13,276 nucleotides of DNA. It comes from a virus. Lineage: Duplodnaviria; Heunggongvirae; Uroviricota; Caudoviricetes. Position 1 is the stretch's first letter; every line of letters begins with the position of its first letter. The position numbers and the translations under genes were made by a program. The notes under the pieces are model-generated. The model worked only from the letters and a program-made list of their open reading frames with translations, had not been told where the DNA came from and made no database searches. Shown here piece after piece: positions 1 to 2,144 of this stretch. The DNA lies in IMG/VR virus record IMGVR_UViG_2703718848_000021, positions 1 to 13,276 of that record; one strand, given 5' to 3'.

Positions 1-204
1 CTAGATCAACGTAGTGATGATCTCGGCTATGTGTTCAAGTGGGATTGGTGCCAAAATAACACCATTTGCTGCCAGTAGTGGAACCGCTACATAATTATAA
101 ATGAGAACGCCAAAGGTGATTGAAGCAATCGCAGTAGTTTTCCATTTAATTTTTACATCTTCGCCATCTTCTTTAATGAAGGCTTTTTTAGTTAGCTCTA
201 TCAT
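1..204 (-). CDS. hypothetical membrane protein, C-terminally truncated by the window edge
   Basis: Minus-strand ORF open to position 1. ATG at 202-204 has an AAGGA SD (213-217) 8 nt upstream; the track start at 246 is TTG with ATG at 241-243 and no SD. Charged K/E-rich N-terminus followed by hydrophobic segments (TTAIASITFGVLIYNYVAVPLLAANGVILAPIPL). True start ambiguous, see 188..307. Confidence 0.4.
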   Translation of the reverse strand: MIELTKKAFIKEDGEDVKIKWKTTAIASITFGVLIYNYVAVPLLAANGVILAPIPLEHIAEIITTLI

Positions 205-307
205 CTTTTTTATCCTTATCTTTTTTATTATCGGTTGCTTCATCAATTTTTTTAGTTATGAAGTATTGAAGACTTTGTACTAGCACAACTTTTAACATAC
301 TAAACAT
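188..307 (-). CDS. small ORF (39 aa), or the N-terminal segment of the downstream membrane protein gene
   Basis: Hand-translated: ATG at 305-307 with SD formed by the TAAGGA that includes the stop of the upstream 106-aa gene (313-320). Translation MFSMLKVVLVQSLQYFITKKIDEATDNKKDKDKKDDRAN, stop at 188-190. Not in the ORF track (short). Confidence 0.25.
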   Translation of the reverse strand: MFSMLKVVLVQSLQYFITKKIDEATDNKKDKDKKDDRAN

Positions 308-317
308 ATACACATCC

Positions 318-2144
<1,827 letters not shown>

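Follow-up and report, generated by a model that had tools for sequence, protein, structure and literature searches.

A probable small protein gene overlapping the start of the last gene, for a membrane protein, in a low-GC Escherichia coli prophage

Does an open reading frame (ORF) of only 39 codons, placed between the gene for a hypothetical protein and the last gene of a prophage, encode a protein of its own? The initial annotation of this locus had offered two readings of the ORF: a small membrane peptide, or the true N-terminus of the membrane protein encoded just downstream, cut off from it by a T7 run one base too long. In this study we examine the ORF in the 13,276-nt stretch of phage DNA in which it was noticed, here called the window, and in its relatives. 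We ask whether it is translated, what its product would be, and how it relates to the gene whose start it overlaps.

The small ORF and its setting at the prophage end

The window covers the attR-proximal end of a siphovirus-type E. coli prophage of about 34 kb that has a large serine recombinase and a GC content of 32-37%. Over the region considered here it is identical to GCA_001576035.1. The region is present in 25 of 5,426 complete E. coli genomes, and its proteins were found in Escherichia coli. In strain F8111-1SC3 it forms the last 0.7 kb of a prophage of about 34 kb that splits yegD. The large serine recombinase lies at the far end of that prophage, with terminase, portal, HK97-type protease, capsid and siphovirus-type tail genes in between. 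Further prophage copies adjoin bssR/yliI or a lactonase/LysR locus.

Among 50,697 phage records, megablast and tblastn searches with the region and its proteins found no close relative, and protein alignment and a degenerate DNA pattern gave no match in the GTDB species representatives. Degenerate-pattern scans of IMG/VR and JGI metagenomes returned the same two lineages only. A set of 5.8 billion proteins held near-identical copies of the small-ORF product and no other match to it, and a membrane-protein profile run against 1.8 billion cluster representatives matched itself only. In all searches the region was thus seen in two lineages: A, which is window-like, and B, which is about 30% diverged. 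Literature searches on the prophage and on the RefSeq accession gave nothing relevant.

The genes at this end of the window all lie on the minus strand. The last gene string, in which the genes abut or overlap, encodes a 196-aa protein, a 106-aa protein, the small-ORF product and a membrane protein of 67-70 aa. For the 196-aa protein we found marginal, below-threshold family matches only. The 106-aa gene (318-638, minus strand; stop TAA at 320-318) encodes a beta-rich hypothetical protein whose homologues are confined to the two prophage lineages, with a dN/dS of 0.22 between them. This protein matched nothing in Pfam, NCBIfam or PADLOC and gave marginal matches only in PHROGs (E >= 0.016). 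A Foldseek search of the PDB with its AF2 model (pLDDT 73) gave a best E of 0.2, to PilZ-like barrels, which is not significant. The membrane-protein gene (1-204, minus strand) encodes 67 aa in the window. It starts with the ATG at 204 and ends at window position 1, and no further gene follows it before the prophage ends.

The small ORF itself occupies 188-307 on the minus strand. It consists of 39 codons from an ATG at 307-305, followed by a TAA stop at 190-188, and its product is MFSMLKVVLVQSLQYFITKKIDEATDNKKDKDKKDDRAN. The features first described for it hold in the window sequence. A Shine-Dalgarno (SD) sequence, TAAGGA, lies at 315-320 with a 7-nt spacer to the ATG at 307; the stop codon of the 106-aa gene sits within this TAAGGA, and the ATG follows 10 nt past that stop. 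The overlap with the membrane-protein gene is likewise present and measures 17 nt (204-188). That gene has an SD of its own, TAAGGAT, at 212-218 with an 8-nt spacer to the ATG at 204, and this SD falls within the charged-tail codons of the small ORF. A promoter-like site upstream of the small ORF was not found.

A strong SD is uncommon among ORFs of this size. When both strands were scanned and each ATG was counted, the window contained 121 ORFs running from ATG to stop over 35 codons or more, and 12 of them were preceded at 5-12 nt by a strong SD. Each of these 12 lies on the coding strand, and the 11 besides the small ORF are long minus-strand ORFs or start a few codons inside them. A near-identical ribosome-binding context, ATAAGGATGTGT(G/A)TATG, occurs on the minus strand at 307-325 (small ORF) and at 2427-2445, where it belongs to the gene for an 83-aa DUF2730 protein.

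Several other features of the surrounding DNA were recorded. The DUF2730 protein, which has one hydrophobic N-terminal segment and a coiled coil, is encoded next to a lysozyme (glycoside hydrolase 24) gene at 1698-2144, the sole plus-strand gene in the midst of genes on the minus strand; beside it no gene is clearly annotated as a holin or spanin. At 1222-1654 on the minus strand (1560-1989 in L018), the gene for a SegE-like GIY-YIG endonuclease is split between a pair of overlapping frames: the GIY part is in a 44-aa ORF that has a strong SD, and the YIG part in an ORF of 104-124 aa. The same split is found in lineage B, which points to an old pseudogene or a conserved frameshift. Six IMG/VR provirus contigs (L001-L003, L029, L030 and L032) all end exactly at the small-ORF stop, inside the membrane-protein gene. 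This looks like the trimming of a boundary to a called gene, and it means that the last prophage gene is absent from those records. The 3' part of the membrane-protein gene (window 1-80) is about 10% diverged between the lineages, against 30% for the rest of the region, and the roughly 25 nt past its stop are alike at three different chromosomal integration sites (L016, L017, L034-L038). The similar 3' end and these 25 nt may be an attP arm that the large serine recombinase recognises, or they may mark a recent tract of recombination.

Coding evidence from two diverged lineages

We looked in lineage B for loss of the ORF or of its SD and ATG, and this sole diverged lineage keeps the SD, the ATG and the frame: a TAAGGAA is followed by a 9-nt spacer, an ATG and an ORF whose 37-aa product is MIEMLKQLVVQSLQYFITKKIDKELSKDEDNKDEKTR. 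The ORF stop is again kept just past the downstream start, 17 nt into the membrane gene. At the nucleotide level the small ORF is about 30% diverged between the lineages, a value equal to that of the 106-aa gene. The indels are informative about its frame. One of 2 nt lies in the spacer, outside the small ORF. It puts the small ORF in a different frame with respect to the 106-aa gene in the two lineages, and a readthrough relationship is thereby excluded. Those within the ORF, of 6 nt (between the lineages) and 9 nt, are in frame. Taken together, a 2-nt indel upstream and in-frame indels inside argue that the small ORF evolves as a reading frame of its own.

Substitutions follow codon structure in the N-terminal part. 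The first 22 codons differ between the lineages at 16 sites, distributed 6, 2 and 8 over the first, second and third codon positions, and the change of Leu5 from TTA to CTC is synonymous. In codons 10-22, the conserved core VQSLQYFITKKID at 242-280 of the minus strand, there are four differences, all of them synonymous third-position changes (CTT/CTA, TAC/TAT, TTC/TTT and ATA/ATC). The comparison shows purifying selection at the protein level on this core. Over the whole ORF, dN/dS between the lineages is 0.45, a noisy estimate from 37 codons; in the two flanking genes it is 0.22 and 0.18. The excess is attributable to the tail, which is barely conserved between the lineages. Because only two lineages exist, the comparative test is one of a single divergence.

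Codon usage gave a concordant result. The small ORF scored 0.46 in lineage A and 0.56 in lineage B, where in-frame windows of phage genes scored 0.59 +/- 0.17 and off-frame windows -0.84 +/- 0.34; the number of off-frame windows that reached the small-ORF score was zero. Within lineage A the small ORF had no point polymorphism, whereas 16 of 321 sites varied in one flanking gene and 23 of 187 in the other.

Length variation within lineage A comes from a 9-nt unit, AAAAAGATG (equivalently GATGAAAAA), present as a single copy in the window at 202-210 on the minus strand. There is one copy in the window and in GCA_001576035.1, two in most close relatives, and three in L001 and L024 (at 787-818). 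The small-ORF product is consequently 39, 42 or 45 aa long in this lineage, most close relatives having one of the two longer forms, and the ORF is otherwise identical. With every unit the small protein gains EKD and, at the same time, the membrane protein gains MKK and one in-frame ATG. This membrane protein begins M..., MKKM... or MKKMKKM... according to copy number, and is a 70-aa protein starting MKKM... in most relatives; lineage B has MKKL. A polymorphic repeat of 9 nt that alters both proteins at once is the one mildly unusual feature of the locus.

Annotation pipelines disagree about the ORF. PGAP calls it as a coding sequence with the same start in lineage A (WP_257649908.1 and WP_175064271.1, hypothetical protein), and the gene callers behind IMG/VR and Logan call it as well; in lineage B it is without PGAP annotation, though present. 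A longer form of 54 or 57 aa, called by Prodigal-type programs from an ATG at 352 inside the 106-aa gene, was rejected because in lineage B a stop codon shortly before the conserved ATG closes it.

The same data bear on the possibility that this is a chance ORF which is not translated, its conservation reflecting shared ancestry and constraints at the nucleotide level. Such a reading draws on the existence of two lineages only, on searches that found no homologues outside this prophage group, and on simulation: with random substitutions at the divergence seen here, a frame of this length stayed open in 18% of trials, or in 6% when the ATG also had to be kept. It has to contend with the conserved SD and ATG, the pattern of changes by codon position, the in-frame indels and a gene-like codon usage beyond that of any off-frame window, and we regard it as distinctly improbable. 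An RNA element would be a different source of conservation; the region gave no Rfam match below E 0.1, and its fold z-score of -0.03 was no better than that of shuffled sequence. We therefore consider it likely that the ORF at 188-307 is a real gene for a small protein, with its own initiation and with 37-45 codons according to the allele. It ranks as an ordinary orphan gene of a phage, small in size and already listed as hypothetical in RefSeq for one lineage.

The product and the reading frame that encodes it

The product was first described as a hydrophobic N-terminal helix followed by a K/D-rich tail. The helix, as a prediction, and the charged tail both stand; the N-terminus proved to be only moderately hydrophobic. 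AF2 modelled one helix over residues 3-38, with a pLDDT of 80-88 over the first 20 residues and confidence only there. The prediction is thus of a conserved, moderately hydrophobic N-terminal helix of about 22 residues and a K/D/E-rich tail that varies in length and sequence. Part of the tail composition is forced, because the A-rich stretch that encodes it also encodes the SD and the MKK codons of the next gene.

The proposal of a small membrane peptide did not survive the hydropathy analysis. For a trans-membrane segment we took about 19 residues with a mean Kyte-Doolittle value of about 1.6 or more. The best 19-residue means were 1.03 for lineage A, including the window, and 0.57 for lineage B, both under this threshold, against 1.83 for the neighbouring membrane protein, and lineage B has polar or charged residues within the putative helix (E3, K6, Q7, Q11, S12 and Q14). 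A trans-membrane micropeptide was accordingly not supported for either lineage.

Searches of Pfam, PHROGs, NCBIfam and PADLOC found no family match for the small-ORF product at E <= 0.1, and comparison with PDB sequences gave only E >= 1.6. Judged by its sequence, the small protein belongs to no described family. That it might be a small recombination directionality factor of the large serine integrase is pure speculation.

We turn to the suggestion that the ORF is the true N-terminus of the membrane protein, either split by a homopolymer error or joined to it by +1 or transcriptional slippage at the A7 run. The run (T7 on the plus strand) lies at 247-253, within ACT AAA AAA ATT, where AAA AAA A-TT reads K K I. 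In the window sequence, deletion of a single A would indeed fuse the two frames into a continuous product of 101 aa, and the low-quality Logan contig P0002 has frameshifted fusions, at other A-runs. The A7 run is nonetheless identical in 29 of 29 loci from independent assemblies, complete genomes among them. In lineage B, skipping one A gives TTG ATA AAG AAC TAA, with a stop after four codons, so the +1 frame is closed and a fusion is impossible there; the -1 frame meets AAT TGA at once in both lineages. A programmed frameshift or slippage joining the ORFs was rejected on the same ground, the shifted frame not being open into the downstream gene in lineage B. Nor does the membrane protein need an extension: its gene has its own well-spaced SD and ATG, the profile of its PHROG family spans 65 positions, and its homologues in T4-like phages have 63 aa. 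We judge a fused or split N-terminus to be extremely unlikely, and the suspicion of a frameshift or sequencing error at this locus is thereby removed.

The overlap with the membrane-protein gene and possible roles

The small ORF crosses the SD and the start codon or codons of the membrane gene, and its stop codon lies 14-23 nt past that start. A ribosome engaged on it would pass over the downstream start and then terminate beside it. Such passage and termination would tie the synthesis of the two proteins together, by termination-reinitiation coupling or by keeping the site open, and the geometry of the pair is typical of translational coupling. The arrangement resembles that of translationally coupled, overlapping small genes in the tightly packed late or accessory operons of phages in its packing of stop, SD and start, its short overlap with the next start and its lack of a promoter-like site of its own. 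It differs from them in that an SD serving the downstream start alone lies in A-rich, unstructured RNA, so that coupling is not needed for initiation there.

This geometry raises the possibility that the ORF is a translated leader or coupling device only, with a peptide that has no function itself. Consistently, in both lineages the ORF spans the SD and the start codon of the next gene and ends 14-23 nt after that start, and its tail is poorly conserved, its K/D/E content being a consequence of the A-rich SD and start region and of its overlap with the MKK codons. Protein-level conservation of the N-terminal 22 residues, where codons 10-22 show only synonymous changes, is nevertheless not something that a pure leader would need, and the downstream start is unstructured with a well-spaced SD of its own. 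We give this reading some weight but think it unlikely. That the peptide is conserved points to a function of the protein itself as well. Its most likely role would be that of a cytoplasmic partner or modulator of the membrane protein, and the simplest target would be the charged, cytoplasmic N-terminus of the latter. The link between the small ORF and this membrane protein is drawn from their overlap only.

The membrane protein offers some context for such a role. Residues 20-66 of its 67-aa form match the unnamed PHROG family phrog_2024; Pfam, NCBIfam and PADLOC gave no match, and neither protein of the pair matched a defence-system profile. Its distant homologues, which are annotated as hypothetical or as "putative membrane protein", are 63-aa proteins of T4-like Klebsiella, Citrobacter and Salmonella phages, including Jiaodavirus, and share the motif NYxxVPLxxAxGxxLxPxPLE. 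In Klebsiella phage JD18 (L040, 2516-2707) and about 160 other T4-like records, the phrog_2024 homologue lies between genes for an NTP-pyrophosphohydrolase and a DNA primase, which we take to be the counterparts of T4 genes 56 and 61, and on the strand opposite to every neighbour. The upstream ORF is absent from the T4-like phages, so a partnership with the small protein would not be a family trait.

Several known systems were compared with the pair. The lambda holin gene S encodes S107 and S105 from a dual-start motif, Met-Lys-Met, and the membrane protein of most relatives begins similarly, with MKKM from two in-frame ATGs separated by lysines. Unlike in lambda S, the feature belongs to the neighbouring gene and not to the small ORF; moreover, the window allele has a single ATG and lineage B has MKKL. 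No holin family match was obtained for the membrane protein. T4-like phages carry their own holin, T, and the finding of its sole relatives in such phages weakens a holin reading of the membrane protein, which we downgraded as unsupported.

In hok/mok/sok, as here, an upstream ORF overlaps the start of a small membrane-protein gene. The overlap in the prophage is only 17-26 nt, however, and the downstream protein of 67-70 aa has a long charged N-terminus. A hok/sok-like type I toxin-antitoxin system was rejected: there was no Rfam match, no promoter-like site on the opposite strand within 188-307, and no stable fold. In the com-mom pair of phage Mu, a small gene overlaps the last gene at the right end of the prophage, and its product, the Cys4 zinc-finger protein Com, binds a stem-loop. 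Shared with the locus described here are the location at the very end of the prophage and a small upstream ORF that overlaps the start of the last gene. A Com-type activator was set aside since neither variant of the peptide contains Cys or His and a stem-loop was not predicted.

A bolder interpretation would make the small protein and the phrog_2024-type membrane protein an undescribed two-part module of the prophage end, serving for example in superinfection exclusion or in the control of lysis timing, with the 9-nt repeat as a tuning or contingency element. We hold this to be rather improbable. Were the repeat such a tuning element, the length of the tail and the number of start codons of the membrane protein (M, MKKM, MKKMKKM) would change together.

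The outcome for the biology of the prophage is a small gene of 37-45 codons, called by some pipelines and skipped by others, that the comparison of lineages confirms, as probably coding, in a low-GC prophage that is rare in E. coli. Should the peptide indeed act together with the membrane protein, it would provide the first experimental handle on phrog_2024, a family present in well over a hundred records of T4-like Klebsiella, Citrobacter and Salmonella phages.
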